Assembly: GCA_964016885.1 (NCBI GenBank)
Contig: OZ024753.1
Location: 28,582,001-28,646,000, forward strand
Direction: 5' to 3'
DNA: 64,000 bases
Source of the DNA: Eledone cirrhosa
Lineage: Eukaryota
In this document: positions 16,756 to 54,021 of the stretch, piece by piece
Layout: each line of letters opens with the position of its first letter
How positions within the stretch are numbered: position 1 is the first letter of the stretch
Notes under the pieces: model-generated
The model's database searches: none
The model's input: only the letters and a program-made list of their open reading frames with translations
What the model was told of the DNA's origin: nothing
Program-made: the position numbers and the translations under genes

Positions 16756-17165
16756 ATTATGAAGAGAGAAGAAACATTAGATATAATTAGTAATAAGATA
16801 TATCATACCTAAACTGCTTAGCTCTGTTTCTTGACCGCTGTATCACGTGATTGACTCCCCCTCCACTTTTCGGGATTCTATCTCGCATCTTACGGACGTG
16901 TTTTGAAACCCTTAATGAGGTATCCTCTTGATAAGTCGGCAGACCTCGCATAATATGCCACGAAACTAGAGGGACTAGAGAAGCAGTTTAGGTATGATAT
17001 ATCTTATTACTAATTATATCTAATGTTTCTTCTCTCTTCATAATGTATTATATAGCTCTGATACTGAATCAATCTAATCCATTCAGATTGGTTTGTCCCA
17101 GTTATTCATAGAGCAACATCGGTTGAGGTTTGTACCACTAACTCAAGGATATATGTGGATATATT
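16756..17165 (+). mobile_element. PLE-type hairpin insertion (inverted arm, decayed HHR, tail) in (TA)n
   Basis: 16756-16819 is the reverse complement of 16981-17044. Contains a TTGATAA...TGCCAC-GAAA-CTAG relic; the tail has a GCTC...GAGC stem. Confidence 0.65.
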
Positions 17166-17210
17166 CATGTATATGTATGTGTCCGCATGTATCTGTGTGT
17201 TTCTCTATAT

Positions 17211-17258
<48 letters not shown>

Positions 17259-17734
17259 CATATCCCATTTAACTGATGCTAACAGGTAGAAAAAAAAGCC
17301 CAAAAAGTTCAGTTAACCAAAATTTTTAGAAAATAAAAAATAAATAAATAAATAAAAAAATAAAAACAATGGTAATGAAGAAGTAAAAACAAACAAACAA
17401 AAACGAACATTATATAACATATAAATGACAAAAAAAAAATCAACCAAACAATTTGTTGATTCTTTTATTGAAAGACATTATAATAATGAAACCCAATGGC
17501 TAATTACAACATCTCTATATGTGGCAGCCAGTTACATGTATTTCAACACCATTGCACAGATTTAATAGGTTTCTCACTATAACATAAATAATAATTTTAT
17601 AATTGTTATGTTCATGTTTCTTTCATCTTAACATGTGATTTTCCATTAGAAATTTAATTAATGCGATTATTAGTGCGTTTGGGTTTGTTTTTGTGTTTGC
17701 ATGCATAACACATACATATAATATATATATATAT

Positions 17735-18480
17735 ATGAAGAGGCGGATTTTCAGGTCTTTACGAAGGTCTGACTTCCACACCGATCTCAAGCTGTGGCAC
17801 ACTGCCCAGGCTTTGCTCTTCCTCTCAACCACATCATCTTCCGTATTCACAATCTTTGCTCCCAAATACAGGAAGTCCTCAACCAATTCTAGCGGCTTCC
17901 CGCCTACATTAGTGATCCCCTCTGGCTTCTCAACATTCTCTACCAGATATTTTGTTTTAGTCTCATTCATTCTCAGCCCCACACTCATCCACACAGTCTC
18001 AACCTCCCGCATCAAATCCTCTGGTCCTTCACTGTATTTGTCACCAAAACTATGTCGTAGTGGAGTCTGTGCTGTTGTACGGGTCTGAGACTTGGACACT
18101 GACCAAGAAACTCACTCAGATGGTGGATGGGTGCTACACGAGAATGCTGAGGATGGCTCTGAACATTAATCAGTATACACTGAGGATGAAAAACTCAGAG
18201 CTGTATGGGAGCATCCCAAAAGTCAGCTCAAAAGTGACACAGAGGAGACTGAGGTTAGCTGGACATGCTCACTGACATCCAGAGTTGACATTGCACTCAG
18301 TGCTCCTGTGGGAGCCTCTACATGGACACACTAGAAGAGGAAGACCAAGGTTAACGTATGTTGATACCCTAAGGACAGACACTGGTCTGTTGGAGATGCA
18401 GGTCATGGCAGCGATAATGAGAGACAGAGACCGCTGGAGAGAACTCGTCCATGGATCTCGGGAATGTTACCCGCCTTAGA
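17735..18480 (+). mobile_element. RTE-group LINE 3' fragment with 5' inversion
   Basis: Minus 17735-~18050 reads VGLRMNETKTKY...DFLYLG...DLKIRLF. Plus ~18055-18479 reads VESVLLYGSETWTL...RRLRLAGH...RGRPRLTYVD...DRDRWR. Flanked by (TA)n. Confidence 0.9.
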
Positions 18481-18492
18481 TATATATATATA

Positions 18493-18664
18493 TAATATAG
18501 ATGAGATTCTACAGGACTAGAACTGTTTCATTCTTTAGATTTCTAAAGAATGAAACAGTTCTAGTCCTGTAGAATCTCATCTATATTAAAACTTTTATAC
18601 TCTGCTATGTATTGAGTACCTTACTTACTGTGGTTACCTCCGATTCAACCTGGAATAACTTACC

Positions 18665-18665
<1 letters not shown>
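18493..18665 (+). mobile_element. short PLE hairpin insertion (47-bp perfect arms plus tail)
   Basis: Perfect palindrome at 18493-18588 and tail ATACTC..GAGTACC...AACTTACCT. Related pieces at 11160-11205 and 53420-53490. Confidence 0.75.
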
Positions 18666-18697
<32 letters not shown>

Positions 18698-18727
18698 AGA
18701 TCAAAAGATGGTTAAAAGAGTTCCATG

Positions 18728-18798
18728 TATTTTATTATGCGCATTTCAAAAACAAATATCATCATACGATGACATTTGCGTTTTCGTCAGATAAAATA
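18728..18798 (-). ncRNA. type-I hammerhead ribozyme (inverted pLTR copy)
   Basis: Near-exact reverse complement of the motif at 22479-22548. Confidence 0.8.
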
Positions 18799-18907
18799 GG
18801 GAGACATGATATGAAGGTTAAAAAACACTTGTGAATGGTGCAGTTTTAAATCAACATATGAAAAGTAGTTTTAGATTGATGTGTGATATTGATTTTTCTT
18901 CTACAAC

Positions 18908-21314
18908 ATGGATTATTACAACATAACCACTTCAACTAAAGACATTCCTATACCTGGTAAATCTGAACTCACCAAACTTCTAATTGAAAAACTGACTCCT
19001 TTATGAGAAGGCTTAGATGGATAGCTTTTTTCTATGACCAGCGCCTAAAAGGGAACTTCTATACCAAGGAACATAACTTTCTCGATCATTTATTTAATTC
19101 TAGAAGAAATCCTCCTTCCAACAAAAATCTAGTGCAATTTGAGGAGGAGTTAACTAACATTATAAAAAATCTTAAATTCAAGAGAAACCCTTACAGAGGA
19201 CAAGAGCACCTTGTAAATCTCAAGAACACTATTTTAAACCAAAATTCCTCAAAAAATGTTTTAGTCCACTCCGACAAAACAAATAATTTATATGGTAATT
19301 CTAAGGATAACTATAACAACCTTATCCTTAAGGAACTTAGGAAAAAATATCGCAAAACCAACCATGATAATTTAGAATCCATAAACTTTGAAGCTTCTGA
19401 GATTATGTCAAAACTTGGCATCGGAAAAAAGACCGAACCATTCCTCCCAAGAACTCCGAGGATAAATCTCAAGGATCACAAAAACAACTTTCGTACTGAA
19501 CTACCTGTTAGACTAATCGTCCCCTCTAAATCTGATCTGGGGGTTGTTAGCAAAGCCATCTTGGATAGAATTATCCCACAGGTTCGTTCTAATTGCTCTA
19601 CTTCGAACTTAAATTTATGGTTTGGTACTTCTGAAGTGATTAGCTGGTTCAACAAATTGAATAAGAAAAACAAACAAAAATTTATTCAATTTGATATTGC
19701 CAGCTACTATTCTTCTATTTCGCCCTCACTTCTCAACAATGCTCTATCTTTCGCTTAGAAATATTTAGACATCACCACAGATGAACTTCACATCATTCTC
19801 ACCGCACGTAAAACCATCCTAGAGTTCAACAATGAATATTGGACCAGAGCTGATACCTCTAACAACTTTGACATCACAATGGGAGCATCCAATTCATCCC
19901 AATTGACAGATTTAATTGGTATCTTTATTTTGAACTCTTTGAATCGGAAAATTCCTCAACTTCGCGGTGGAATTTATCGTGACGATGGATTTTTTACTAT
20001 CTTAAATTGCAACATAGTTAACCTTAATATTATTAAGAACAATATACGTAATCTCTTTAACCAACATAACTTAAAAATTGAATTTTATAACAACATCAAA
20101 CTAGCTAATTTCTTGGATGTATCTCTTAATCTTGACACTGGCCTATATTACCCTTACCATAAAAACAATGAGAATCTAAATTATGTTAATTTTAAATCTA
20201 ACCACCCCACTAATATTAAGAATGCTATAGTTAGTAATATTTGAAAAAGAATATCCAACCTATCATCTAATAAAAACATCTTTGATGCTAACGCCAATTA
20301 CTATAATAATGCGCTTTCTAAAGCCGGTTATCCTGATAAAATCAAATATAGTAAAGAAACAAATTCTAGAAGATCTTACAGTAGTATAATTAATCATGAT
20401 CATTCCAATAACTTTAATAAAAGACCTAGATACAAAAACATAATCTGGTATAATGCTCCTTTCTCCATCTCTATTAATAATAATATTCCTAAATTACTCT
20501 TTAGTGCCTTAAATAAATGCTTCCCTCCCTCACATATCTATAGTAAAATATTTAACAAACACACTATAAAATTTTCCTATTCGACCTCCTCCAACATCTC
20601 CAACATTATCTCTAAAAACAACAATAAAATACTAAATACTAAATCTCTTCCTTCCAACACTGAATATCATAATAATAGTAATAGTACTCCCGACGTCATT
20701 GTTAACTCTAGGCAAATTTCTGCAAACCCAAATACAACGTCAAACGCAACTTCGTTAAATGTTCTTAATCCCAATCTAAATCAAGAAACTATTATTCCTA
20801 TCGTAAATAACTTCTCCAATCCAATTCCTTCTATAGATAACATTAGGTCACTTGTTAATAACTTTATTAATTTCTCTAATCACAATTGTAATTGCCCTGT
20901 TAAAAATAAATGTCCTCTCAACAACCATTGTCTTGAAAAAAACTTAATCTATGAATGTAAAGTTATAACTGACACCAATTCCTTTACCTATTTTGGCTCC
21001 ACTTCCACCTCCTTTAAAGCTCGTCTTTATAATCATCATTCATCTTTTAAATACCAACTTAAAAGAACCAAACGGCACTCTCAGAACTCATATGGTCCTT
21101 GAAAGACAAAAATATTAACTATAACATCTCTTGGAGGAAGGTTTGTTCTGCTTCTCCATACTTGAATGCCTCTCTATCCAAGATATGTAATCTCTGTTTA
21201 TGTGAGAAATTTACCATTATATCTAATTTAGATTCTATAATAAATAGATGCACTGACTTGTTTTCTCTCTACTTGCATAAATTCCACAGAACATTCCATA
21301 AAGTATACAGCTAA
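18908..21314 (+). pseudogene. PLE polyprotein (RT plus C-terminal GIY-YIG endonuclease), ~800 codons, four lesions
   Basis: Motifs FIQFDIASYYSSI, FDITMGASNSS, GIYRDDG, NFLDVSLNL, KSNHP, IIWYNAPFS, CNCPVKNKCPLNNHC, NLIYEC...TYFGST, FKARLYNH, CNLCLCEK. Frameshifts at ~18990 and ~21072; stops at 19756 and 20242. Confidence 0.92.
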
Positions 21315-22478
21315 TATCTAATACTTTACCAATTTAAAATCCTTTTTCTCAAAGGCACATATATATATATACATATATATTTCTTTAAAAATATACCCAT
21401 CTTTCTACCTTATTTCAATGTTATTTATTATATATTATATAATACTAGTTACTCATTCTATATCACTCCTATTTATCACTTCCCTTTCTTCCTTTTTTCC
21501 TTTTTTCTTTTAATTTCTAACCTCTAATCTGTACCTTTTCTTCCTAGATACTTCTCAATTCTCATTATTACTCACAATATATCCACTCTTCCTTCTCCCA
21601 TCCTATCACTGGCCATAAAATTTACTATTACCCTTTTAAATAATTTATAGTATCACCTTGAAAAATCCTTCGTAAACATAAACATTTTTTTTTACGTTAG
21701 ATTATTCATCCTCAATTCATTATTTTTTTCTCCCTTTCATGCTCATCTAACTTCTACTCATCACAACACATAATCAAACTAAAACCCTAACTAATCTCTT
21801 TTATTACATTATATTATTACCATTAGGAAATACTTCATAAACATACATATTTTGATGTTAAGGTCTTCTCCTTAAACACTATCTCCTTCTTTGCTTTCTG
21901 CGCTCATTTGTAAACAAACTATTTACATATATTAATTCATCCACTTTTCACAATATATCCTTAATTATATTACTATTTTTATATTTTTTTTAATAATACA
22001 TATCAACAATTTCTTTCCATCGCACATATTATTAAACCCTTCAATATTCAAACCTTAACTTAATATTATTCTTAATACATATTAACAATTTCTTTTCATC
22101 GCACATATTATTAAACCCTTCAATATACAAACCTTAATTTAACATTATTCTTAAATTTTTCTCTTCGTTAATTTTCAAATTCTTTTAATTTATATATTAT
22201 CTTCCAACGGTTTTTTAACCTCTCTCTGTAAAACAATATATTTTTCTCAATTATAAAAGCTATCTCTCTCTCTCTATCACCCATCTCTCCTCCTATCTCA
22301 TCCTTCCTTATTATACTCCTCCCCCTCCATTCTTTACTCTCATCTCCTCCTCTTTTTCATCCCCCCCCCTCAATTTTTTTCCCCAATATCACACATCAAT
22401 CTAAAACAACTTTTCATATGTTGATTTAAAACTGCACCATTCACAGGTGTTTTTTAACCTTCATATCATGTCTCTCCC

Positions 22479-22548
22479 TATTTTATCTGACGAAACGCAA
22501 ATGTCATCGCATGCTGATATTTGTTTTTGAAATGCGCATAATAAAATA
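22479..22548 (+). ncRNA. type-I hammerhead ribozyme in PLE pLTR
   Basis: Stem I TATTTTAT/ATAAAATA, CTGACGA, long stem II, GAAA, palindromic TGCGCA stem III, TA cleavage site. Confidence 0.88.
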
Positions 22549-22674
22549 CATGGAACTCTTTTAACCATCTTTTGATCTTATATATTATTTATACTCCAGT
22601 CCTACAAACTGTAGAGTGCTACTTATCCGATATCTGCATTGCTTTATTGTACTACAATAAAACTCACCTCCTAC

Positions 22675-22766
<92 letters not shown>

Positions 22767-22798
22767 TATTATATTATATATATGTATATATATATATA

Positions 22799-22878
<80 letters not shown>

Positions 22879-22916
22879 GAAATTACATGAATCAAAGTTC
22901 TGTTTAAACCATTTAT

Positions 22917-22965
22917 TCGCTTACAATTGTTTCTTCCAAACCGAGGTTTGGAGTCTTCGGAGCAA
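22917..22965 (-). ncRNA. type-I hammerhead ribozyme with CCGAAGA core
   Basis: Minus strand: TTGCT-CCGAAGA-C-TCCAAACC TC GGTTTGGA-A-GAAA-CAATTG-TA-AGCGA. Confidence 0.75.
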
Positions 22966-23409
22966 TTTTTCATTGATTTTTTACATACTTGACCTCCATT
23001 CCAACACAAGAGACATACAGAAACATATGTATATATTGATGCACAGGAGGTTGACATCCATTATAATATGGCAATTTACATTCAAAGATTAAGGTCATAT
23101 TAAAGAACAAAATTAAAGTTAAAATACAACAGTGGCAGTTTACGAAGATAAAGCAAGAGGATAGTTTGAAGTAGTTAGTGTATGCAATAGTTACACGTGG
23201 GGCATGAACGTGTGTCTTATTTATATAAGATTATAGTGCGGCAGGGTGTTATATGTAATACAAGCACTTTAAGCGGGCAATCAAGAGTATATATATATAT
23301 ATATGTATATGTATATATATATGTATATATATATATACATATATATGTGTGTGTGTGTATATATATATATATGTGTGTGTATATATATGTATGTAAATAT
23401 GTATATATG

Positions 23410-23440
<31 letters not shown>

Positions 23441-23486: not shown

Positions 23487-24136
23487 ATATATATATATAT
23501 TGGTAAAAGGAAAAGAAAATGCTGACAAATTGTTCCCAGTGAAAAATAGTTTAATTAGGAATAAGTAAAAATTAGTAATAAGTATTGGTTAGTATTCAGT
23601 TTTGGTTTTAAGTTTTTACTGGTTGCACATTTCTAATGCTTTTCAAAAATAATTTTGAGATAGAGCGCCCGTGATGTTTGCTCTAATTAGATTAAATAAC
23701 TCCACCTCAGAAAAATATCTAAGGTCTGAGGTGGAGTTATTTAATTTTATCTGGGTACCTATTGATAAACACAGAAAAAGTTGATTAACTCACAGCTAAT
23801 TAGTTAATTATTTTACTATTATACCATCCTTTGTGAAACATGTTTGAAGTTTGAAGTTCTGACCGATCTGCGGAAAAAGTTTGTATTTTGAATTTTAAAC
23901 GTGTCTAGGTACCAAGGCTTTTTGCCCATAAGAGTCTGTGAGTATTGATTTATTATTTTTTAGATCGTACAGGCAGACTTTATGTTGTTGAATTAAGATA
24001 TTTTCACTCTAGCGATTTTATTAGTCAATTGCAACTAAAACATGTAAATGTTCATCAAATATTAATTTATACTGCTCAGAAGCGATTCTTAGAGCTGAAA
24101 TGATTGTAAATGACCCCATTGAGTCTAAACTCTAAG

Positions 24137-24226
<90 letters not shown>

Positions 24227-31763: not shown

Positions 31764-32327
31764 CGTTTCTGAATTTGTTTAGCAAGATTCTTTATCTGAA
31801 AACGTGTGTTGAAACCGATATTGTTATACTTTGGGAGGGTCATGTTGCCAATAAGAAACACACGCACCAGTGCTTTCACTTCAATTTATTATAATAAATT
31901 TATAAATTTAGGAATTTATAAATTTCCGGTTGGTTGGTTCCACAACCAGATGGTTGTTTATATATTGTCAAAGTTCTTTCGTCACACATTCTGTGACCTC
32001 TTCAGTGACTGGGGATTCTTTTCTTTGTTTTTTGTGCTCTCCTTTGTTCTGTCCTACGCCATCTTGTTTTTGACACACAAAATCAAGATGGCGTAGGACA
32101 GAACAAAGGAGAGCACAAAAAACAAAGAAAAGAATCCCCAGTCACTGAAGAGGTCACAGAATGTGTGACGAAAGAACTTTGACAATATATAAACAACCAT
32201 CTGGTTGTGGAACCAACCAACCGGAAATTTATAAATTCCTAAATTTATAAATTTATATAATAAATTGAAGTGAAAGCAACTGGTGCGTGTGTTTCTTATT
32301 GGCAACATGACCCTCCCAAAGTATAAC
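31763..32327 (-). mobile_element. PLE pLTR hairpin insertion (~245-bp arms plus 60-bp tail)
   Basis: 31823-32066 is the reverse complement of 32084-32327; tail at 31763-31822; (TA)n flanks. Relatives at 38058-38225, 38750-38907, 44281-44381 and 54056-54390. Confidence 0.85.
32141..32183 (+). ncRNA. minimal type-I hammerhead ribozyme (mirror copy on - at 31967-32009)
   Basis: GTCA-CTGAAGA-G-GTCACA GAATG TGTGAC-GAAA-GAAC-TT-TGAC. Confidence 0.75.
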
Positions 32328-32371
32328 TATATCTATATATATATCTATATATATATATATATATATATATA

Positions 32372-32695: not shown

Positions 32696-33464
32696 ATATA
32701 TGTATATGTGTGTGTGTATATATATATATATATATGTAAAAGGTAAACAGAAATAATAAACATAACAAAACAAATGGCACAGAACATGGATGAAATATAT
32801 TAGTTTAATGCTTGAAATAGCAGGAATGATCTGTCTACTAGTAAAGATACTATACACATCTGAATTAACAAAGGATGTTTAAGAGTTAAGAATTCCAGAT
32901 AGATTCTCAGTCTCAATGGTTGTCTATTTTATTAGACTATACTTTGATAATTATTTGAACATAATCACTGTAGCAATAATTAATTGTAAGCTATTTACAT
33001 GTGATTAGTTTCTACAACAAATTAGGTTATAGTCTGTTGTTATATTTGTATTTTTTTAACTTTATATTTGAAGTGATTTCTTTTTTTCTTTTTCTTTTTC
33101 TTTTTCTTTTTCTTTTTCTTTTTCTTTTTCTTTTTCTTTTTCTTTTTCTTTTTCTTCTGAATAGTAGTGATGGCTATTGAGGCTAGTATAAAAATCATTT
33201 CTGCCTTTTGGCATGGCTGTATGTTTAAAAGGTTTGGTTCACAACCATGTGGTTCTAGATTCAATCCTGTGATATCATGGGTAATTATCTTCAACTATCT
33301 TCTACTAGGCAGTCAATTTGACAGAACTGTTAGAGTGTTAGATATTTCTTCTGGGTTTTTGTGTTCTGAGTTCAAATCCTGCCAAGTTCCACTTTGCCTC
33401 TCATCTTTTCAATCTGTGCTCAATAAAGTACCAGGTCAGTGCTGTTGCAGCTCCTCTCGTTTAA

Positions 33465-36566: not shown

Positions 36567-36570
<4 letters not shown>

Positions 36571-38012
36571 GGAGGTGAGTTTTATTGTAGTACAATAAAG
36601 CAATGCAGATATAGGATAAGAAGCACTCTACAAACTTAAAAGAACTAACACTGCTCTCTCAGAACTCATATGGTCCTTAAAAGACAAAAACATTAAATAT
36701 ACCATCTTTTGGAAGAAGATTTCTTCTGCATCCTCATACTTGAACAGCTCTCTATCTAAAATCTGTAATCTCTGCCTAAATGAAAAATTTACCATTATCT
36801 CTAACCTAGATTCTATAATAAATAGACGCACAGATTTGTTTTCTATCTGCCTGCATAAATTCCATAGAAGTTTTCACAAAGTATACAGTTAATATTCAAT
36901 TCTTTATCAATTTAGAATCTTTTCTCAAAGGCACATATACATACACCTCTTTAAAATATACCCATCTACCTTACTTTAAAGGGCATTATACACTCTATAA
37001 TACTTGTTTACTCATTACCCTCATTCTATCTTCACCTTGTAAAATCATAACATATACTCTTGTTGTTTTTGACGTTAGAATATTCATCCGCAATCATTAT
37101 TATTTTTTCTCTCTATCATAAATCTTTTTAATCTCAATTTCATCCTTAATTTATTATTTTTTTCTCCCCATCAACGAACTCATTATTAATACATATTAAC
37201 TCTTTATTCGCATATATTATCAATTCAATCAATATACAAACTTTAACTTCACATTATTTTTCTCAAATCCTTCTACACACAAACCTTAATAATTTTTCTC
37301 TTCGTTAATTTTGAAATTGCCACAATACATACATTTCTTTTTTTGACGTTAGAATATTCATCCACAATTATTATTTTTTTCTCTCTATCTTCATACATAA
37401 TTTCCCTTCGTTAATTTTCAAATTCCTTTAATTTATACATTATCTTCCAACGGTTCTCAACCTCTCTATGTTAAAACAATATATCTTTTTCTCAGTTATA
37501 AAAACTCTCTCTTTCTCTCTATCACCCATCTCTCCCTCTCCACCTTCACTCTCATCTCCTCCCCCTTTTTTTCATCCTTTCCACCCCCCCTCCCTAAATA
37601 AAATATTTTTTCCTCGCACATATCCTCCCTTCGTTAATTTTCAAAATGTTTAATTTATACAGTATCTTCCAACGGTTTTCAACCTCTCTATATAAAAAAT
37701 ATATCTCCTCTCAGTTATAAAAACTATCTCTTTCTCTCTATCACCCATCTCTCCCTCTCATCTCCTTCCCTTTTCATCCTTTCCACCCCCCCCCTCTCTA
37801 AATAAAATATTTTTTTCCCAATATCACACATCAATCTAAAACCACTTTTCATATGTTGATTTAAAACTGCACTATCCACAAGTGTTTTTTAGCCTTCATA
37901 TCATGTTCTCCTGTTTTATCTGATGAAAACACAAATATTATTGCATGATGATGTTTGTTTTTGAAATGCGCATAATAAAATACATGGAACTCCTTTAACC
38001 ATCTTTTGATCT

Positions 38013-38018
<6 letters not shown>
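36567..38018 (+). mobile_element. 5'-truncated copy of the 18689 PLE family, with the tail inverted at the 5' end
   Basis: 36567-36632 is the reverse complement of tail ~22611-22675. Then the EN C-terminus (KRTNTALSELIWSLKDK...CNLCLNEK), 3'UTR and a pLTR ending without a tail in (TA)n. Confidence 0.9.
37912..37982 (+). ncRNA. type-I hammerhead ribozyme
   Basis: TGTTTTAT-CTGATGA-stem II-GAAA-TGCGCA-TA-ATAAAATA. Confidence 0.85.
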
Positions 38019-38058
<40 letters not shown>

Positions 38059-38608
38059 GTCATACTTTGGGAGGGTCATGTTGCCAATAAGAAACACATG
38101 CACCAGTTGCTTTCACTTCAATTTATTATATATTTATGACATATATTATATTATTAAGTATGACAATATCGGTTTCAACACACGATTTCAGATAAAGAAT
38201 CTTGCTAAACAAATTCAGAAACGAAATATATATATAATGGTTTCTATATAAGAAACCATTATATTTATAAATATATTTATATATATATATATATGAGGGA
38301 GGGGAAAGTTGATTAAATCGACCCCAGTGCGTGACTGGTACTTTATTTTATCGACCCCCGTAAGGATGAAAGGCAAAGTTAACCTCGGCGGGACTTGAAC
38401 TCAGATAGTAAAGGACCACTGTTGAGTAGAGACGTGCGTTTCGCTATTGATCAGCACAAGGTTTGATCTGTGTCGGTCTTGCCCGACTCTGCAATCAAAA
38501 GCTTGTTGGACCTTTGTTGTGGTATATACAATATATATATATCCACCCGGAACCTGAACTGATATGGTCTGGTTTCTGGGTATGTCACTATTTATAAAAC
38601 AAATTTAG

Positions 38609-38670: not shown

Positions 38671-38932
38671 AATATGGTTTTATAAATATAGTTTCCATAT
38701 ATTAATATCATTGTTATATATATACTTATATATATACATATATATATATTGTTATACTTGGGGAGGGTCATATTTGTGTAATATTGCCAGAATTAATAAC
38801 AGAACACACTCACTGTTTGGTTGGTTTTCGCTTCTCGCTGTCTTTTATATCGGTAATCTAACTTACTCGGTCCTCAATGTTGCCATGACTGACTAATTCA
38901 TCGCCGCTATATATATATATATATATATATAT

Positions 38933-39390
38933 ACAATATTAAATAAATGGAAAACTATATTTATAAAACCATATTTATTTCATTATATATATTTCGGGGA
39001 TATCATATTAACAATATGCTATGCCTTCATCAGACAAAATACAATATAAACAGTTTTATAGATAAATATATTCGACATACCGTAATAAACATCAACTTCA
39101 TTTGGAGAGGTTTACTGCTAGCGTAAACCTCTCCAAATGAAGTTGATGTTTATTACGGTATGTCGAATATATTTATCTATAAAACTGTTTATATTGTATT
39201 TTGTCTGATGAAGGCATAGCATATTGTTAATATGATATCCCCAAAATATATATAATGAAATAAATATGGTTTTATAAATATAGTTTTCCATTTATTTAAT
39301 ATTGTAAATATACTCCAAATATTTGTCGAGTGCTTTTATATCAGTTATAAATATTTACTAGTTGTAACCCAACAATTTTAAATATAACTT

Positions 39391-39394
<4 letters not shown>
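38933..39394 (+). mobile_element. PLE pLTR hairpin insertion (183-bp arms, 7-nt loop, tail) with HHR in both arms
   Basis: 38933-39115 is the reverse complement of 39123-39305. CTGATGA at 39205; the left arm keeps GAAA-TATATA-TA on the minus strand; tail ATACTC...GAGTGC. Confidence 0.85.
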
Positions 39395-40437: not shown

Positions 40438-42149
40438 TGAAAAGAGTAAAGTTGGACAACATGCTTTATGGCATAGAGTTATGGCCCTATACGATCTAAG
40501 TTTAAATCTTGCTGAGGTTAGCTTTGCTTTCCATCCTTATGGGGTCGATAAAATAAAGTATCTGTAATGCACTGGGGGTGATTTAATGGACTTTCCCCGC
40601 TCCCAAAATTGTTGGCCTTGTACCTAAATCAGAAACCAATATCTTAGCATCTTTCAATACACCTCAAAAACTCATGGCATACCTCTGTGGGTCATAGGTG
40701 GCACATAAGTGTGTCACAATATGGTGGTTGAAAACATCTGATGCAGAGATTGGAAATGCTAGAGTTCAACCTGTAAAAATGGTTTCTTTATCAATATTTT
40801 TCAGTGGATTCTTATAAAACATCATTTTTCTTTATTTTTTATTTTTTATTTTTTATTTGTTCATATTTGCATCTGTTTGTTTATCACATTTAATATTCAT
40901 TTGCATGCATACCACTGTAGCCAGATAATTGATTGGAATTGATGAAACAAGTATTTATAGCCTGATTCCTTCCTTTGAAGACTTAATGTCAACCATATGT
41001 GCATTTTGAATCACTTTTGTTGCCTGTGAACAGCATGCAGATAAATGGGCATCATTAGCATACGTGAGATGTAGAGCTTAAAGCAAGCTTAGAAAATGGT
41101 GACTAGACATAAAATGCAAAAACCAATATGTACAGGAGATAATAGCAGTGTTGGTATGGTCACATGATGAAAATGACATCTTCTAAGTGAAAACAGGGAG
41201 ATATGAATGTTGTCAAAAAAATGCAGTCAAGACAAACAAGCCAATGAGGAGCTTCTAGATGGTCATTCGACATGTTAGAAATAGCAGCCATGTGGCTGGT
41301 GTTAGGAAGGGCATCCTCTGTAAAATCCTCAGCCAAATTGACAGTCTCATCGGAGCAAGGTGTGTCATGGCCAATTCTGGCCAGATTTGTCTTCCGCTGT
41401 GGACGATCCATCTAACCCATGCAAGCTTGTAAAAATGGATGATAAATCAAACCCAGCTTGTTTTAAAAATGGTCACATCGTACAATATAGGCCAGGATAT
41501 ACAAAAAAAGGACTGGATGGTCATGGATGGAATGCCTTTTGTCGCACAGAGCTGGCCTGGTTCTATACAACAACAATTTACTGTAGAGAAAGATTGCAGA
41601 ATACATGGGAAGAAAAAGTGAGATCAGATGTGAAATGATAGAATTTTCTGATAGTTTGCTTGTAGATGCAGTCTTGGTTATGAGCACACTTCTTTATATA
41701 TACTTTAAGCCTGACCAGTTACCACTCTGTATGCAAATGAGCTTCATCAGCTCTTATACATAGCCAAGAAATCTATAAGATTTTAGCTATTTTTGTCTCA
41801 GCGGAAACTAGGATATGCAGCCTCGACAATATCTAACAGGTGAAAAACAATTTTGTCGGTCGCTTCCCCTGGTTTTTGCTGAGACTAAGGTTGTGTGATG
41901 ATGATTTCAACCTTTAAAAAATTCATAGCTGAAGTTCTGTCAAATGTTTTTCATTAACATCCTGTATACAACACATACATATATGTGTATAATAATATGT
42001 TGGACTACCTATAATAAATTTATATATATATATATATATAAATATAAAACACTTGCCGCAGGGAAAGCAGATGTTAAAACAACAATAATGATGTTGATAT
42101 ATATATATATATTTATATATATATATACATACATATATATATATATATA

Positions 42150-44030
42150 GAATAAGGAAAAGCGAAGTAGTTTCAGATGTTCAAGTCCTTTAATAATAAT
42201 GCTGTGATATATATTTCAATGACGACACTGGCCACACTGTTCTGTGTGCGAGTGTCGTGTCATCATCAGACAGCTTGTTACATAATAAGGTTATGTTTCC
42301 GAGGCAATCCAAATTGAATCGACATGGGAACGGATGAAGTTCGTGCTTTTGGGTTTTTCATTCGTTCCCTTGTGAGTACCAATTCACCCTCACCGGTCTG
42401 TGCAAGCACATGTCCGAAGGAAGTTGACCATTAGCCACCGCAGATTTCAACAAAATTCGCTGTCAGTTCACCCTCTCAGCCAAAACAATGGCCCACCTAT
42501 GCCCTACCAAAGTTTACTGCTACCCATCACGACTGTGGCAGTCAGCCGAAAGCCAGAAGGGATGGGAGGGTGTTAGTTTTTATAGGTCATAATACTACCT
42601 TTCACTAAGCGTTGACAGCAAGACTGACCATCAACTCATAAGGGAAACTAAACTTAATTCTAGGTACCATGGTTTTACATTGGAAGTTAAGAGTGAGAGT
42701 TGGAAATAAAAATTAAAAATTAAAATCCTAAATCAAATATCAGAGATTATAAATTAAACAATTAAAAAATTCAAAAATTCAAAATTCAAAAATGTTTCAA
42801 GTGATAATTTCGGATTGAGTAAAAATATAGATTGAAGTGAGTAAATAATATGGAGAGAGATGTTTAAGTAATATGTTCTGAGAGGGATTCTAGTGTCACA
42901 GTTACTCTATCCACATATTGAACGACAGTGCCGTGCATTATAACGGAGGGCAAACTACAGGGTTCAAGGCATTAGACAATCTGGTACACAGTCATAATTT
43001 CAATCACATGGAACAAAATCAAAGAAAAACAGACATAAAGTACACAAAAGAAAAGAAAAGAACAGAACCAATAGTGAATAAATGCAAAAACACAGAGTAC
43101 ATATATGCAAAATGATCCATATGATTGTCCATCTGTCCATGTATAGATTGAATTGAGGGGGCTTCTGTTCAAATGCGATTATAATGTAGGGCACTGTCGT
43201 TCAATATGTGGATAGAGTAACTGTGACACTACAATCCCTCTCAGAACATCTCTCTCCATATTATTTACTCACTTCAATCTATATTTTTACTCAATCCGAA
43301 ATTATCACTTGAACATTTTTTAATTTCAAATTTTTTTATTTTTTTATTGTTTAATTTATAATCTCTGATATTTGATTTAGGATTTTAATTTTTAATTTTT
43401 ATTTCCAACTCTCACTCTTAACTTCCAATGTAAAACCATGGTACCTAGAATTAAGTTTAGTTTCCCTTATGAGTTGATGGTCAGTCTTGCTGTCAACGCT
43501 TAGTGAAAGGTAGTATTATGACCTATAAAAACTAACACCCTCCCATCCCTTCTGGCTTTCGGCTGACTGCCACAGTCGTGATGGGTAGCAGTAAACTTTG
43601 GTAGGGCATAGGTGGGCCATTGATTTGGCTGAGAGGGTGAACTGACAGCGAATTTTGTTGAAATCTGCGGTGGCTAATGGTCAACTTCCTTCGGACATGC
43701 GCTTGCGCAGACCGGTGGGGGTGAATTGGTACTCACAAGGGAACGGATGAAAAACCCAAAAGCACGAACTTCATCCATTCCCATGTCGATTCAATTTGGA
43801 TTGCCTCGGAAACATAACCTTATTATGTAACAAGCTGTCTGATGATGACACGACACTCGCACACAGAACAGTGTGGCCAGTGTCGTCATTGAAATATATA
43901 TCACAGCATTATTATTAAAGGACTTGAACATCTGAAACTACTTCGCTTTTCCTTATTCGATATTTACTCCGTCACTCCTATGTGGAAAAAGTACGTTGAG
44001 TGCTTGAATTGAATTGCATCAATGTTTACC

Positions 44031-44033
<3 letters not shown>
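42150..44033 (+). mobile_element. 1.9-kb palindromic PLE-derived insertion (~780-bp arms, ~240-bp spacer, 75-bp tail)
   Basis: 42150-42941 is the reverse complement of 43181-43958 with few substitutions and indels. HHR near the outer ends; tail at 43959-44033; (TA)n flanks. Confidence 0.88.
43834..43907 (+). ncRNA. canonical type-I hammerhead ribozyme (mirror copy on - at 42201-42274)
   Basis: GCTGT-CTGATGA-TGAC.GACACT..CACAC..GTGTG..AGTGTCGTCA-TT-GAAA-TATATA-TC-ACAGC; predicted cleavage after C43902. Confidence 0.9.
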
Positions 44034-44064
<31 letters not shown>

Positions 44065-44572: not shown

Positions 44573-45288
44573 CACATATATATATAGAGAGAGACACACA
44601 CTCACATACATATATATAATCTTGAAGATTTGTCAAAATTTAGTGAACTAAAGTAGATTGATATCTCATGAAATTACAATTCAATGACTAAGATAATAAA
44701 AAATAAAAAATACATAAAAAGATTTATAATTATACTTATATTTGAAATAAATTATTCATCTTGAAATCTGCAGTACGCTATTTTTCCATTACCTTGGTGA
44801 TGAAATAATATTATTTATGAAAAATAAAGTGTACAGCAGACAGTCTTATAAATTATTTTACTGGTTTCAGTCATTAGACTGTGCCAGACTGTGGTACTCT
44901 CTAAACTTGTGCCTTGGAGGGAAACTTTCTTGGTGCAAAACCATGGTCATCAGTGACGAATGGGGGTCTTAGGTGACAACATGCTTCTGGTTGCATTTTG
45001 CATTGTGTCACCTTACCTAACTTATGTTGATTACTCTGAGCATTAATTTATTGATTTCTTCTCATTGAGTGCTTCGTGGAAGCCTCCAAAAATCGATTGC
45101 GAACCTGCTACTTGCAGTATTGGTAGAGGGTTGGACACCATTCTTTGCAGCAAAGAGTTACATCCATTTATAGTCTGAGTTCAAATCCCGCCAAGGTTAA
45201 CTTTGCCTTTCATCATTACGGGGTCGATAAAATAAAGTACCAGTAATGTACTGAATAATTGCTGGCCTTGTGCCAAAAGTAGAAACAA

Positions 45289-47267: not shown

Positions 47268-47670
47268 TGGAGGCACATGGCTTAGTGGTTAGAGCATTGG
47301 CCTTGCAATCAAAAGGTTGTGAGTTCAATTCCCAGACCGGGTGATGTGTTGTTTCCTTGAGCAAGACACTTTATTTCACATTGCTCCAGTTTACTCAGCT
47401 GTAGAAATGAGATGATAGGGACTTGGGTCCATATAATTCCACTGCAAAGTGGTCGTGCAGGTGTCACGGCAAAAAAGCACCCAGCACTCACTGTAAATGA
47501 GGTTGGTGTTAGGAAGGGCATCCAGCTGTAGAAATCAAGCCAGAATCAGTTCCCGTCCCACCCTTGCAAGCAGGGAAAAAGCGGACGTAAAATGATGATG
47601 ATGATGAAATGATGATGATGATGAAATGATGATGATGATGAAATGATGATGATGATGAAATGATGATGAT
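47268..47670 (+). mobile_element. family A SINE, tail type 1
   Basis: Near-identical to 25085-25432; long (ATG)n tail. Confidence 0.85.
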
Positions 47671-48294
47671 GTCAGAATGAAAAGCAAAGCTAACCTCAGT
47701 GGGATTTGAACTGTAAAGGGCCTTAACTATATGCCACAAAGAAGGTTGTGCAACACTCTTCCGATACTGTCAATCCACCGTCCTATAATAATCTGTAATA
47801 ATAGCACAGAGTTGTCTAAGAGAAGAATTAAAGGACAATGAAAATAAATAAAGCAAAGCAACCAACCCATGATGCTAATTCTTTTAAAAACAAAAATATA
47901 AATCTAACTGCACCAGTAATACTATATTTTTATTATGTAGTAGTCCAGAGAGCAGTGGAATAGCAGTATCGGTAGAGTGTCGGACAACATGCTTAGCAGC
48001 ATAGGGTTATAGCCTTTAACGATCTGAGTTCAAATCCTGCCGAGGTTAGCTTTGTCTTTCATCCTTACGGTGCCGATAAAATAAAGTACCAGTCACATGT
48101 TGGGGTCGATTTAATCAACTTTTCCCTCCCCCCAAATTGCTGGCCTTGTGCCTATATCAGAAACCATCATGTAGTAGTAGTCCAGTACTGGAGTTGATTC
48201 TTCCTCTCTATCTCTGTATTACTTCCATTCTATCACATCTTTTAGAAATTGGCTGCATTCAGTCCTGGAGATGACTAAGCTCTGCCATGCTTAG

Positions 48295-48496
48295 CCCTTT
48301 ACCATTTACATTACTCTATATTTACTATTGTATTTTCATGGAAAAGGCTTTATCTCACATAATATCGAAGCTATGAGATTTTGATATTATTTATTTTGAG
48401 AACAATATCTTAACATAAGCAGCCAGTTATGGCCAGTGAGAGAATTCTGGCCAGATATGGCCAGTTTTTAAACTGGCCATATCTGATGCTAAAGGG
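48295..48496 (+). mobile_element. piggyBac-type MITE
   Basis: TTAG|CCCTTTACCATTTA...GCTAAAGGG|TTAA. Confidence 0.75.
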
Positions 48497-48711
48497 TTAA
48501 AATGTCCAAGAAACGCCCTATGACATTCCAGCACCCTTACAACTCCACTGACAGCTATGTGTCCAAACATACATATATTTCAATAATTAAAAGAACTTAT
48601 CTGCATAAAACCTCTTTTATCGTCTTCAGTTAATGAATGAAGATTGTGATAGCCAAATAAAAATGGGACATATTAATTTGGCAAATTGAGATATTGGTGT
48701 GTGTATGTGTA

Positions 48712-48744
<33 letters not shown>

Positions 48745-48842
48745 GTAAACACACACTCCTATTTATATATGTGTATGTGTGTGAGTGTATATATATATAT
48801 ATATATATATCTATATATGTGTGTATATATATGTATATATTT

Positions 48843-49080
48843 ACTCGAGAGAAGAAGACTATGTTGGTATGGTCACGTGATACGCATGAAAGACGACAGC
48901 TGTATAAAAAAGTGCAGGGCGATCAAAATAGACGGTAGCTATGGAGTAGGCAGACCCAGAAAAACCTGGGATGACTTGATAAATTCCGACCTCACACACT
49001 TACACCTCTCCAAGACAATGTCACTGGACCGAGATCTTTGGCGCTATGCAGTAATACAGAAGACCCGCCTTGCCTAAGTA
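48843..49080 (+). mobile_element. RTE-group LINE 3' fragment
   Basis: ERRRLCWYGHVIRM...GRPRKTWDDLINSDL...DRDLWRYAV. Confidence 0.82.
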
Positions 49081-49551
49081 CAAAGCGAAACCTACAGTTA
49101 GTAGGCACCTCTTAACCAAAATACACCCCCGTCCCACTATCCCTACCCCACCGCCATCTACACCACCCCTTTCTCTGTAAAGTAATGTTGGTACCACAAC
49201 ATCCAGTCCGAAACAAATGAGGTCGTGTAGGTGTCACAACAAAAAAACACACAGTCCACGCTGTAATGTGGCCGTGTAGGTAACACAGTAAAAACCTCCC
49301 AGTCCACACTGTAAACGTGGTTGGTGTTAGGAAGGGCATCCAGCCGTAGAAAACCCGCCAGAGAGTTTCGAGCAAGACAACCAATCTTACCTCAAGTGGA
49401 ACAATTCCCGTCCAGACCCATGCTAGCGTGGAAGATGGACATTAAACGATGATGATAGTGATGATGATGATGATGATATATATATATATACATAACTCAT
49501 GCTAGCATGGAAGAACGGACGTAAAACAGTGATGATGATGATGATGATGAT

Positions 49552-49609
<58 letters not shown>

Positions 49610-50048
49610 ATATATATACACACACAAAACACATGTATGCGTGTTTGTGGAAGGATTATCTGAGATAATTTATCTCAATTAATTTAGCCACTAATTTATA
49701 TAATAGAAGCTGTAATTGGTGACTGATAATACAATTACTGCTTTTAATGGTGTCTACTAGATTCATCTAACTTCTTTAACACACACACTTATGTAGAGGA
49801 AGATACATCTATACACAGCTATTCACACATCTGAACATACTTCACAACTTATAAGCAAACATGTTGGATTAATGCCAACTTATGATAGCCTAACAAAGCA
49901 GAACTCACCAACAGTTCCATAGTTCCGCCTTGCTCTGTTCCATTGTCTAACTGACAAAACACTAAGACATAAAAGAGCTGAATGTGAAATAACAGATTGA
50001 GAATTCAGTTTTCTTCCAGGGCTGATCCTAGCTTAGATTTTACCATTA

Positions 50049-50307
50049 CAAGGTGAGTCATAAGTAACTGACAGTCAATGTATTTTTATTACAAGGTTCA
50101 GAGATAACTTTCTGAACATCCACTCATTATCTGTGTGATGGACAAGCTCAGTTTTTTTTTAACACTCACTTGAATTACATTTTAACTGCTTTTGTTTGAT
50201 GTATTTATAATTTCGTACTGTATGACAAGCATTTTAGTAAATAATATCATTTGGAATATAAATGTTGGACCCCCCCCCCCCCCCCCGGTTACTTATGACT
50301 CACTCTG
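50049..50307. mobile_element. Tc1/mariner MITE
   Basis: TA|CAAGGTGAGTCATAAGTAAC...GTTACTTATGACTCACTCTG|TA. Confidence 0.82.
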
Positions 50308-50312
50308 TATAA

Positions 50313-50524
50313 CCTTTTAGCATTTAAACTGACTGTATCCAGTCAGAATTCTTTCCCTTCTTTCTGTTAAAACTGGCCATAACTGGCCCCTCATACTGAT
50401 GTTAAGGTATTGTTCTCAAAATATATAATATCAAAATCTCATAGATTTGTGTGTGTGTGTGTTAGATAAAACCTTTACTGTGGAAATACAATAGTAAATA
50501 TAGAGTAATGTAAATGCTAAAGAG
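50313..50524 (-). mobile_element. piggyBac-type MITE
   Basis: Reverse-complement copy of the 26953/33465 family; TTAA at 50525-50528. Confidence 0.75.
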
Positions 50525-52074
50525 TTAAATATGAACTTTAATATCTTTTTATTAATAATAATAATGAAAATTATTGTGTACAGTGCTCAGGTGCACTACA
50601 CCTCATCAAAAGAGCATGTATACTACATAGAATAATGTACAAATATCAGATGAATATCCATTAAAACCTGTAGTGAAAGGGTCCTTAGGAGAAGTCCTCA
50701 AACTACCCTTATGGGTCATGTTTTACCAATTCTCATGCAATCAAAGAACTGAATGAAATGAACATGTTCATATGTATGTATGGGGCTGTAACTCCCGAGA
50801 GAGTCATAGGGGTGCTGTATTGACATACAACATTTCTTGGGCTTTTTTAAAACCTGGCAGTGCCCAACTCTTCTCCAGGTCTGAATACAGCAGATTTCTT
50901 CCAGAGAAGGAAAGAGAGTGAGTGAGAGAGAGAGAGATAAAATGAGAAAGAGATATAGAGGAAGAGTCGAACCCAGATGAATATCCATTAAAACCTGTAC
51001 TTTTTTATCCATCTCAAAAGGATGAAAGGCAAAGTTGACCTCGGTGGGATTTGAACTCAGAGAGCAGAGAGTCAGCACAAATACTGCAAAGCATTCTATC
51101 TGACGTTCTAACAACTCTGCCAATTCACCACCATATATTTAGTCCTAAATAAATGAGGTCGTGTAGGTGTCATGACAAAAAAACACACAGTCCACGCTGT
51201 AATATAGCCATGTAGGTAACACGGTAAAAACCTCTCAGTCCACACTGTAAATGTGGTTGGTGTTAGGAAAGGCACCCAGCCGTAGAAAACCCGCCAGACA
51301 GTCCCGAGCAAGACAATCAATCTTGCCTCAAGTGGGACAATTCCCGTCCAGACCCATGCTAGCGTGGAAGATGGACGTTAAACGATGATGATGATGATGA
51401 TGATATTTATATACATACAAGATATAAGATAAAAAGAATCATCAAATATATATAATAACATCTATAAAACCTATTGATACAGTTGGACCATGTTGGTGTA
51501 TTTTTTTTACACAAGCTTCTCTGCTATTTGGTGTGACAAGTAAAATAATGATGTAAGTGAAAACAATTTTGATTTATTTCAAACAAGGGTTAATATATTC
51601 TGTGATCATTTCAGAAATATTTTGATTTGTAATAGCAAAATGATAATAATTCTCAACAGGTTTCATAACATGATAACCCATCTGACCCATGCAAGCATGG
51701 AAAAATAGATGTTAAACGGTGACGATGATGATATGTTTCAGATGAAGTTTCTATGAAACAGTATATTCATTTTCTCTGAGAGGCAAAGAACACCACCATC
51801 ATTAACCATATAAATATATTTACATGATGGTGACATGAGAAAACGCCCAGCCCACACTGTAAAGTAGTCGTGTAGGTGTCATGACAAAAAGCACCCGGTC
51901 CACACTGTAAAGTGGTTGTGTAGGTGTCACAACAAAAAGAAAATAGGGTGTGATTTGAGGGAGAGTTGGCAGCTATTTCAAGCAAGTTCAGTGACCACAT
52001 AGAGGCTATGTATGTGTGGGATAGAAATGAGGTTTTAATGAATGTGATAAACTTACTCTATCACTGTTATAACC

Positions 52075-52830
52075 GATACCACTACAAATACTACAACAAT
52101 AACATACCACTACCACAACAATACCACAGCAATAAGACCACTACCACCACTACTGCAACCATGACATCACCCTTGCTTCTACTGCTAAAGCCACCACCAA
52201 CACTACATCTAACATCAATCACTACCACCAACACTGCCACCACTATAACCCCTACATCTAACATCGTCTTTCCATCACTACCACCAACATTGCCACCACC
52301 ACTACCACCCATACTACATCTAACACCATCTTTACATCACTGGCACCACCAGTACCACCCATACTACATCTAACACCGTCTTTCCATCACTACTACAACC
52401 ACTACATCTAACATAATCTTTCCATTACTACCACCCACACTGCCACTACTACAACCACTACATCTAACATCGTCTTTCCATCACTACTACCATCACTACC
52501 ACCAACACTACATCTAACATGGTCCTTCCATCACTACTACCCACACTACCACCAACACCACCACTATCACTACCACCCACACTACCACCAACATTACATC
52601 TAACATCATATTTCTATCACTACGACCCACACTACCACCAACACTGCCATAACCACCAACACTACCACTATCACTACCACCTACACTACCACCAACACTA
52701 CATCTAACATCATCCTTCCATCACTACTACCCACACTACCACCACTTCTACTACTAGAACTACTACCAGTGACATTAACACAACCACTACCACCTACTAT
52801 AACGACCACCAACACTACCACCTACACTGT
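52075..52830. repeat. (ACC/ACT)-rich minisatellite with recurring CTACATCTAACA unit
   Basis: Directly visible. Confidence 0.85.
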
Positions 52831-52904
52831 CACAACTAGCTCTTACATTTCTTCGAAGTAAAAACTGCCATCAGATGCTACAGTTCAACCACATGTAGTG
52901 AGAA

Positions 52905-53022
52905 TAATAGCAGTAGTAGCAGTAGTAGCAGTAGTAGCAGTAGTAGCAGTAGTAGTTGTAGCAGCAACAGCAGTCACTACAGCAGTAGCTGCAACAGCAG
53001 CAACAGCAACAGTAGTAGCTGT

Positions 53023-53074
<52 letters not shown>

Positions 53075-53290
53075 ATAGTAGTAGTAGTGATAGTAGTAGT
53101 AGTAGTGGTGGTGATAGTAGTAGTAGTAGTGGTGGTGGTGGTGGTCGTGGTGGTGGTGGTGGTGGTGGTGGTAGTAGTAGCAGTAGCAGTGGTAGTAGTA
53201 GCAGTAGCAGCAGCAGTAGTAGTGGGAGTGGTAGTAGAGGACATTGGAGTCATAGTAGTACTGCCAATGGTTGTATTGGTAGTAATGTAG
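52905..53290. repeat. (GTA/GCA/GTG)n triplet microsatellite
   Basis: Directly visible. Confidence 0.9.
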
Positions 53291-53769
53291 GGTTGGTGTT
53301 TAGCCCTAGGTCACACCTCATTCAGCAATCTTAGAATCTTAGACAGTACAGCCATGACCACCACCATCTAATGGGTGTAGAATCATAGATAGTACAACCA
53401 TTTATATATCAAACTTGATGTTTACACTCTACTAATGTATTGAGTACCTTACTAACTGTGGTTACCACCAATTGAACCTAGGACTTACGCACATATCTTT
53501 ACATTTTTTACTTCTCTTGTCTGTTTGTCTCTATCTATCTACACACATATATACACACATATATGTCTCTATCTATCTACCCATCTTTCTACCCATCTAT
53601 CTTTCCATCTCTCTCTCTCCTGTCATTTTCTTTTACTTTCTTTCAGACTTCTATCCCTGTATTGCTCCCTTAATTTTTTCCCCCTCAAAAATTGCCTTAG
53701 TTTCATGTCCCTCAATCTTATAATTTCTCAACACACATTTTCATAACCCCCTCTCTCTCTCTCAATTAT

Positions 53770-53816
<47 letters not shown>

Positions 53817-53817
<1 letters not shown>

Positions 53818-54021
53818 CGAAGGAATTGTGGTAAGGAACCAGATGGACCATAACACACCAGAGTACTCAATCCTTAGGGTAGTAGAGTGGGAAATAGGAA
53901 AAGAAATGACCCCGACGGCAGAGCTCAAGCCATTTCGACGGCTATTTCTGGACTAAATTCAATTTAGTTCAGAAATAGCCGTCGAAATGGCTTGAACTCT
54001 GTTGTCGGGGTCATACCTTTT

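Follow-up and report, generated by a model that had tools for sequence, protein, structure and literature searches.

The untranslated leader of Penelope-like elements (PLEs) of the Hydra clade contains a short bulged hairpin that is usually present twice, that covaries between families, and just upstream of which the ends of genomic insertions cluster. We describe this hairpin starting from a 64,000-nucleotide stretch of the Eledone cirrhosa genome (assembly GCA_964016885.1, contig OZ024753.1, positions 28,582,001 to 28,646,000, forward strand; referred to as the window), for which a preliminary description had proposed that the tails of unrelated PLE families share a stem and an antisense splice donor-like terminus. 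From the comparison of sequences, we hold with moderate confidence that the hairpin is a docking site for the element's reverse transcriptase (RT) and that copying starts slightly upstream, at a UA-rich patch a few bases away.

A covarying hairpin, usually doubled, in the Hydra leader

To describe the hairpin independently of the window, we used 78 related loci from metagenome contigs, taken from the best 80 of 444 confirmed stretches via an alignment of 24 homologs; no relative was found in viral contigs. In these loci, the lower stem of the hairpin has 4 bp and is separated by a 2-nt bulge on the 3′ side from an upper stem that covaries; the RCU flank is fixed. In the consensus, a UA-rich patch is followed by GCUC-Y, then by a variable stem-loop and R, and after these by the 2-nt bulge (UU in 50 hairpins, UC in 15, UA in 8) and GAGC-ACU-N-U. 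When 12 of the 78 loci were compared with Rfam, no match at an E value of ≤0.5 was obtained.

The pair across the bulge, pair 5, lies outside the search pattern and is formed in all 73 distinct hairpins (51 C-G and 22 U-A); with control bulges of 0, 1, and 3 nt, it forms in 1, 0, and 8 of 73. On an RT tree of 38 families, it switches at least six times, four of these switches being forced by well-supported branches. Upper-stem pairing reaches 87%, compared with 59 ± 3% when partners are permuted (0/5,000); for hairpin 2 alone, the excess is weaker (80% versus 69%; 14/5,000). MAFFT alone misaligns the 5′ strands of the hairpins, and we therefore relied on end-anchored counts and covariance models. 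A covariance model built from 10 outside hairpins found 118 matches in the loci, which gave an alignment of 95 distinct rows with 97.3% of cells paired, 113 two-sided changes versus 35 ± 5, and 18 to 59% pairing in slid controls. The covariation check set by the preliminary description came out in favor of pair 5 and the upper stem across outside Hydra families. The compensatory change it had seen between ACTC/GAGT and GCTC/GAGC stems is confirmed by the outer pair, which is G-C in most hairpins, U-A in loci L066 and L071, and A-U in the window. Wobble pairs are biased, with 12 G-U against 2 A-C, which favors the sense strand as the one that folds.

Among 50 leaders with at least 200 nt of upstream sequence (near-identical families included), 37 carry two hairpins, 10 carry one, and 3 carry none; three were never found, and the background inside open reading frames (ORFs) is 0.08 per 260 nt. 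The order is hammerhead ribozyme, ~55 nt, hairpin 1, a period of ~63 nt, hairpin 2, and AUG. In 30 leaders, the spacing between hairpins is 55 to 74 nt (median, 63) and hairpin 2 precedes the AUG by 14 to 49 nt, and in 26 of 33 references with a matched hammerhead core, hairpin 1 lies 47 to 66 nt past the hammerhead GAAAC. By eye, the published consensi fit into this arrangement to differing degrees: Hydra-1_Ajap starts with two hairpins, Hydra-2_Amil and Hydra-2_Ajap have one terminal hairpin, Hydra-1_Crog has a terminal variant, and Hydra-1_Obim, the consensus of which ends ~50 nt past the hammerhead core, has one degenerate hairpin only. The stem had been taken for the start of the tail; it is indeed present in tails, but it belongs to a pair of leader hairpins, with the tail spanning the interval from one to the other.

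Hydra-clade elements and hairpins in the window

The window is rich in microsatellites, and self-comparison shows many insertions at (TA)n that consist of two inverted arms with an extension on one arm only. This extension is the known PLE "tail" (PMC8557442; PMC3846280). Hydra-clade proteins are defined by RW(K), a change of DKG to DKT, a CxCx5C linker, and, at the C terminus, a GIY-YIG endonuclease (EN) (PMC8557442). Translation of the window element F1 yields a broken RT-EN protein with the Hydra motifs RWI, DKT, and CNCPVKNKC; its homologs share 33 to 50% identity, tblastn matches span both RT and EN, and the best protein match is labeled Argonauta hians. Two further remnants found by tblastn, at 36629-36859 and 15303-15608(-), preserve the EN end or the N terminus alone; a Pfam search gave no significant match. 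Sense-strand hammerhead cores stand in the pseudo-long terminal repeats (pLTRs) or leader at 22487, ~37920, and 16032(-). These calls are made by pattern and eye only, since Rfam listed no hammerhead among the best 150 of 225 window matches, nor in the 12 outside loci; the window matches listed were below-threshold microRNA and snoRNA models, mostly on repeats.

A (TA)n target, an inverted arm, and a one-sided tail are found in both F1 and 36567-38027, while 15303-16040 is a leader only. By their sequences, these three belong to Hydra-clade PLEs. The ORF-less, stem-bearing stubs (F2, F3, F4, F5, F7, 24074, and 45033) are likely of the same clade, an assignment made from the hairpin and the architecture because these copies have no ORF remnant. 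The families were previously called unrelated, which is not borne out: the three with reading-frame remnants are all of the Hydra clade. The features are as follows.

18683..22671, plus strand: F1, Hydra-clade PLE; tailless inverted arm, then a broken ORF and a 3′ pLTR that carries hammerhead, hairpin 1, and tail; (TA)n on both sides
18683..18891, minus strand: F1 inverted pLTR arm; 96% identity to 22384-22593; stops 4 nt short of the hairpin position
18908..21266, plus strand: F1 Hydra-type RT-EN ORF remnant; RW, DKT, CxCx5C; frameshifts, stops at 19756 and 20242
22480..22547, plus strand: F1 type I hammerhead motif, by eye; CTGACGA at 22487, GAAA at 22529, long stem II
22593..22617, plus strand: F1 hairpin 1; ACTC C..G TA GAGT GCT
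22618..22671, plus strand: F1 linker to the (TA)n junction; AACTCACCT at 22661; hairpin 2 would come next in the element
36567..38027, plus strand: second F1-family copy; tail-only inverted arm 36567-36632 ending in the hairpin loop; tailless direct arm with EN remnant
15303..16040, minus strand: leader of a further Hydra family, not in the preliminary description; native order, from hammerhead (16032) through an inserted element with terminal inverted repeats (~15821-15972) and hairpins 1 and 2 to ATG 15602 and the ORF start
15773..15792, minus strand: hairpin 1 of this leader; one extra base at pair 5
15653..15668, minus strand: hairpin 2 of this leader; degenerate upper stem; 124 nt past hairpin 1
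18493..18664, plus strand: F5 fold-back stub with tail; hairpin 18599-18617; tailless arm stops 10 nt before the hairpin position
53426..53490, plus strand: solo tail of the F5 family; hairpin 53426-53445
38926..39394, plus strand: F2, a fold-back insertion carrying a hammerhead; hairpin 39312-39331; tailless arm stops 5 nt before
42145..44034, plus strand: F3 inverted-arm insertion; hairpin 43966-44001; tailless arm stops 7 nt before
53817..54026, minus strand: F4 fold-back stub; hairpin 53865-53888; tailless arm stops 5 nt before
16746..17150, plus strand: F7 inverted-arm insertion; GCTC/GAGC hairpin 17055-17114 with long upper arm; deviating 3′ flank
24074..24141, plus strand: perfect bulged GCTC/GAGC hairpin at 24074-24095, 68 nt before (TA)n, without RCU flank; membership uncertain
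45033..45070, plus strand: isolated hairpin with the full descriptor, absent from the preliminary list

Neither a hammerhead nor an arm was found in the window around the 24074 hairpin. The ACTC..GAGT(G/A)C stems first reported were recovered to within 1 to 2 nt, at 18599, 22593 (given as 22594), 39312, 43966, 53426, and 53888(-), as were the GCTC..GAGC versions at 17055-17114 and 24074-24095 (given as 24076-24097), and the tail-end motifs were found where they had been placed. Sharing of the stem among tails holds for the hairpin families; the GTTTACCT family (16483, 16672, 55958, and 32724) is without the hairpin, and so, as already recognized, is the 31763 family.

The original stem pattern has 15 matches in the window versus 2.4 expected (maximum of 8 in 25 block-shuffled windows), although 4 of them (10248, 54603, 58794, and 59530) belong to an unrelated dispersed repeat without the bulge pair. 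A stricter descriptor drawn from the outside loci gives 7 matches versus 0.24 expected when the RC flank is included (maximum of 1 in 25 shuffles), one of which, 8935(-), belongs to no tail, and 10 versus 4.0 expected without the flank. The covariance model trained on outside hairpins alone places 39312, 53426, 18599, 53888, and 22593 among its six best window matches (E values, 0.0025 to 0.38), and two covariance models agree in having five of the six ACTC sites of the preliminary description within their six best. The outside-only model missed 43966, 17055, and 45033, which have long loops, and matched 24074 on the opposite strand only. A further model match at 50577-50621(-), GCTC..GAGCACT without bulge pair, hammerhead, or (TA)n, is probably due to chance. 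Hairpin 2 of an outside locus (L019:5084-5122, minus strand) and F1 hairpin 1 (22593-22617) differ at 1 of 17 nt in upper stem and loop and by a compensatory pair in the lower stem.

The window has one leader in native order, 15602-16040(-), in which the 124-nt spacing is double the usual period; near its midpoint (~15700-15745, minus strand) stands a degenerate ATTC..GAAT stem that may be what is left of a third unit. Between the hammerhead and hairpin 1 of this leader, a ~150-bp element resembling a miniature inverted-repeat transposable element (15821-15972) is inserted at TA, with terminal inverted repeats GAGG..GGGGCTGAAAA / TTTTTCAGCACCCCCTC. F1 has an Asn/Ser/Pro-rich insert between RT and EN (20620-20880), to be compared with the N-rich inserts of rotifer Penelope (PMC3846280). 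Selenocysteine read-through as in Naiads was rejected for F1, which is of the Hydra clade, has frameshifts, and has TAG as its first ORF break. Elsewhere, 4040-7620 is a 3.6-kb (CAC)n-CAGG minisatellite with several frames open.

Insertion ends, tails, and the start of reverse transcription

In eight of eight comparisons within stem-bearing, two-armed insertions of the window, the stem begins shortly after the position at which the tailless arm stops (4, 9, 5, 7, 5, 5, 10, and 0 nt, by eye). Outside the window, 34 rows with a 3′ end were reduced to 16 scored junctions by removing 11 at contig ends, 4 cross-family rows, and 3 microsatellite artifacts. Twelve of the 16 sit 0 to 6 nt upstream of a hairpin, six at hairpin 1 and six at hairpin 2, a clustering with a chance of 2 × 10−10 by length and of 3 × 10−4 given the distribution of TAT/ATA sites. 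Eight further junctions judged by eye (L018, L019, L034, L036, L041, L044, L055, and L057) are all within 8 nt of a hairpin. Since 3′ ends cluster before hairpins, an end with a tail is one that lies ahead of hairpin 2, and the tail spans a single hairpin period; in the window, where loops are longer, tails measure 65 to 95 nt from the hairpin start. A corresponding claim for 5′ junctions was dropped, the loci having been selected for whole ORFs.

These ends suggest how insertion may proceed. The template would be a read-through RNA from a tandem or partial tandem copy. The RT-EN protein would bind the hairpin and nick (TA)n DNA, the TA-rich 3′ end of which would anneal to the UA patch 5′ of the hairpin and be extended upstream. 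A start at hairpin 1 would give the tailless end, and a start at hairpin 2 would give an end with hairpin 1 and the linker, that is, the tail. As this scheme leaves the anchoring hairpin uncopied, each end would be short of one hairpin, and both would persist only in the tandem's internal leader. The hairpin would thereby set the pair of internal starts that PLEs are known to use. Of the earlier proposal of an undescribed cis-acting RNA element serving as an RT-binding stem, the RNA element is upheld by covariation, the sense-strand wobble bias, the fixed position, and the match to insertion ends; the binding of RT is putative.

Two-armed insertions have a tail on exactly one side in 8 of 8 cases (two of them from families without the Hydra hairpin) and in 2 more by eye, whereas independent choices of start would give this at most 50% of the time each. 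It is conceivable, if doubtful, that through its two hairpins a single RNA takes up two RT-EN molecules and that one target strand is extended from before hairpin 1 and the other from before hairpin 2. Such twin priming would yield inverted arms, the restriction of the tail to one side, and tail-only arms ending within hairpin 1, of the kind seen in L008, L018, and window 36567-36632; where arms overlap, it would need strand displacement or a second RNA.

Several observations weigh against docking and internal initiation at the hairpin. The 73-of-73 count depends on 5′ partners picked by folding energy and checked by hand, and the 95-row alignment is fitted to the covariance model itself. The three lower pairs are nearly invariant, so that what they show is sequence conservation, not pairing. 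The short hairpins are weak (−2.9 to −9 kcal/mol), with a z-score below −2 in 2 of 11 only, and a 195-nt fold of F1 gives the lower stem another pairing partner. Four of the 16 junctions lie elsewhere (−12, −27, −65, and −86), the window copy at 54447-54462 terminates within hairpin 1, and TA microhomology blurs junction positions by a few bases. Families without the hairpin (31763 and 12990) make one-sided tails, so the hairpin is not the sole route to a tail. Lastly, the biochemistry to which we compare these elements, that of the Poseidon element PAc, comes from a clade other than Hydra, and the comparison is by analogy.

The same ends could be produced at the DNA level, with the GIY-YIG EN recognizing the hairpin in cDNA or pLTR and cutting just 5′ of it, and the ends arising by resolution or homing. 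PMC8557442 attributes the tail to EN-mediated resolution, the Drosophila virilis tail is required for EN recognition (as cited in PMC11167929), and some 5′ junctions are near hairpins (L003, −14; L027, −11). We nonetheless regard this as distinctly unlikely: the G-U over A-C bias is on the sense strand, while first-strand cDNA is antisense, and PAc starts mapped in vitro on RNA agree with genomic ends (PMC11167929).

That ends are divided evenly between hairpins 1 and 2, and that they prefer hairpin-adjacent sites even when TA sites are allowed for (P = 3 × 10−4), argues against a role of the hairpins in leader translation or RNA processing alone, with ends clustering merely through annealing of the neighboring UA patch to (TA)n. 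This explanation, which covers protein autoregulation, cap-independent initiation after hammerhead cleavage, and an aid to hammerhead folding, would also leave the conserved UA patch 5′ of each hairpin unexplained. It gains from the closeness of hairpin 2 to the AUG, the narrow distance of the module past the hammerhead, the dependence of PAc hammerhead cleavage on protein (PMC11167929), and the 30% of leader TAT/ATA sites that adjoin hairpins; we consider it unlikely.

The tail terminus was scored on the antisense strand over the last 25 nt with an approximate donor matrix. Five of 11 window tail families have strong donor-like ends (5.6 to 11.3 bits; P = 0.015 to 0.065 each), two with a perfect AG|GTRAGT site and three with a good one, and the eight window hairpin families average 4.7 bits versus 1.1 ± 1.3 (0/400 shuffles), although these scores include the sites, picked after inspection, that prompted the donor idea. 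No enrichment extends across families: the last 25 nt of 28 outside families score 0.52 versus −0.1 ± 0.65, and in 34 outside linkers the best antisense donor averages 2.77 versus 3.01 ± 0.49 bits, with strong donors in 3 of 34 versus 3.4 expected. The proposal of an antisense splice donor or U1 mimic thus fails outside the window set. The TYAC core is enriched in outside linkers (17/33 versus 10.1; 1/300 shuffles), as one of eight patterns tried, but the longer donor words are not (TYACC, 4/33 versus 2.1; ACCT, 4/33 versus 4.0). G(A/T)TGA is enriched in the first linker half (9/33 versus 1.2), TYAC is enriched in the second, and the last 15 nt are 7% G. Sense donors show a slight mean excess (7/300 shuffles) with no strong site among 34 linkers.

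The view that the tail end works as an antisense 5′ splice site (or as a U1 mimic in sense), if only in this host lineage, and serves antisense transcripts or host transcripts that run into the element, could draw further on perfect or strong sites in L025 and L028, on the 5′-untranslated-region introns that PLEs retain, though in sense (PMC2377424), and on antisense templates once proposed (PMC3846280). We find it very improbable, as the distance from site to end varies from −3 to −15 and several window tails have no donor. The donor-like tail end is probably incidental, and it fits a G-poor, AC-rich linker seen in reverse, perhaps loosely paired. Two other readings of this region were set aside: a branch point (YTRAY is depleted, 4/33 versus 10.5; CTYAC, 3 versus 2.0) and a third hairpin in the linker, which is unproven, as shuffled sequences fold equally well (mean z, −0.07 over 34 linkers). 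A sub-clade (L022, L025, L028, L034, and L038) has a CACCT(G)-like word 11 to 22 nt before hairpin 2, which in L025 and L028 pairs with an upstream GGTG/CAG stretch.

Other tailed or hammerhead-bearing insertions in the window are without the Hydra hairpin. One family group with hammerheads (31764-32330, 38056-38225, and 54054-54390) has a ~63-nt one-sided tail and the common proximal end CCCAAAGTATAAC; at 38056-38225, a tailless arm is paired with a tail-only arm. The insertion at 12940-13946 has 213-nt inverted arms of 100% identity and a 47-nt one-sided tail, as in a young PLE-like insertion; no hammerhead core was found in it. A search of the PMC8557442 supplement for short motifs of families 31763 and 12990 gave no match. 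A short family with a minimal hammerhead core and mutated GAAA has four copies (16366-16494, 16555-16683, 32724-32826, and 55854-55969), all of which terminate at GTTTACCTTTTA before (CA)n or (TA)n.

Known systems and significance

The Hydra clade as published (PMC8557442) shares with our elements RW(K)/DKT/CxCx5C, the sense pLTR hammerhead, (TA)n targets, truncated inverted arms, and the one-sided tail. The available text names no leader hairpin and gives tails of 30 to 40 bp, compared with 65 to 95 nt here; in its Hydra consensi, the hairpin is visible but unremarked. In vitro, the RT of Poseidon PAc uses two internal start sites, which delimit the tail, both target strands are extended, and RNA is needed out to +172, 3′ of the start at +111-118 (PMC11167929). 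Tail-bounding internal starts, required RNA 3′ of the start, and an AT-rich target are common to both cases. PAc starts, however, lie inside the ORF at an "AC-rich stem loop," whereas Hydra starts would lie in an untranslated leader before a doubled covarying hairpin, and the available text defines no conserved or duplicated binding element for PAc (PMC11167929).

The telomerase template boundary element is likewise a short stem with conserved bases that adjoins the template and is bound by a related RT, telomerase reverse transcriptase (TERT); it lies 5′ of the template and stops synthesis (PMC4993307), whereas the Hydra hairpin lies 3′ of the start, which it would set. The Hydra hairpin may also stop cDNA arriving from hairpin 2. 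DRT2 and TERT are the best structure matches of the predicted Hydra fold (predicted local distance difference test, 87.5); no PLE structure is among the PDB matches listed for this model. Small structures recognized by RTs also specify the start of reverse transcription in the 3′ stem-loops of long and short interspersed nuclear elements (LINEs and SINEs) and in the bulged stem-loop epsilon of hepadnaviruses. The LINE stem-loops are upstream of the start and are copied, and epsilon templates protein priming from its bulge; the Hydra hairpin, by comparison, is downstream of the start, would remain uncopied, and is doubled.

While the clade, the tail, and internal initiation were already known, the hairpin is apparently an undescribed cis-element, tied to insertion ends. 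Literature searches, which covered works other than subscription papers, found no description of it, nor does one appear in the available portions of PMC8557442, PMC11167929, PMC3846280, PMC2377424, PMC4209133, PMC4993307, PMC11722881, and bioRxiv 2026.07.22.740005.

PLEs are the closest retroelement relatives of telomerase, and the hairpin bears on how they choose internal starts and make their one-sided tail; the sole in vitro study of a PLE located start sites, not their signal. At 25 nt, with positions that hardly vary, pairs that covary, and a constant offset to insertion ends, the hairpin lends itself to mutagenesis and structure determination. It can be used to recognize ORF-less Hydra stubs and retrozyme-like passengers, and tools for target-primed insertion could take it up as a portable tag. 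A hairpin-directed start predicts why tandems are needed, and twin priming, if true, would have the number of hairpins at the ends fall from two through one to zero and would explain the tandem requirement of PLEs.

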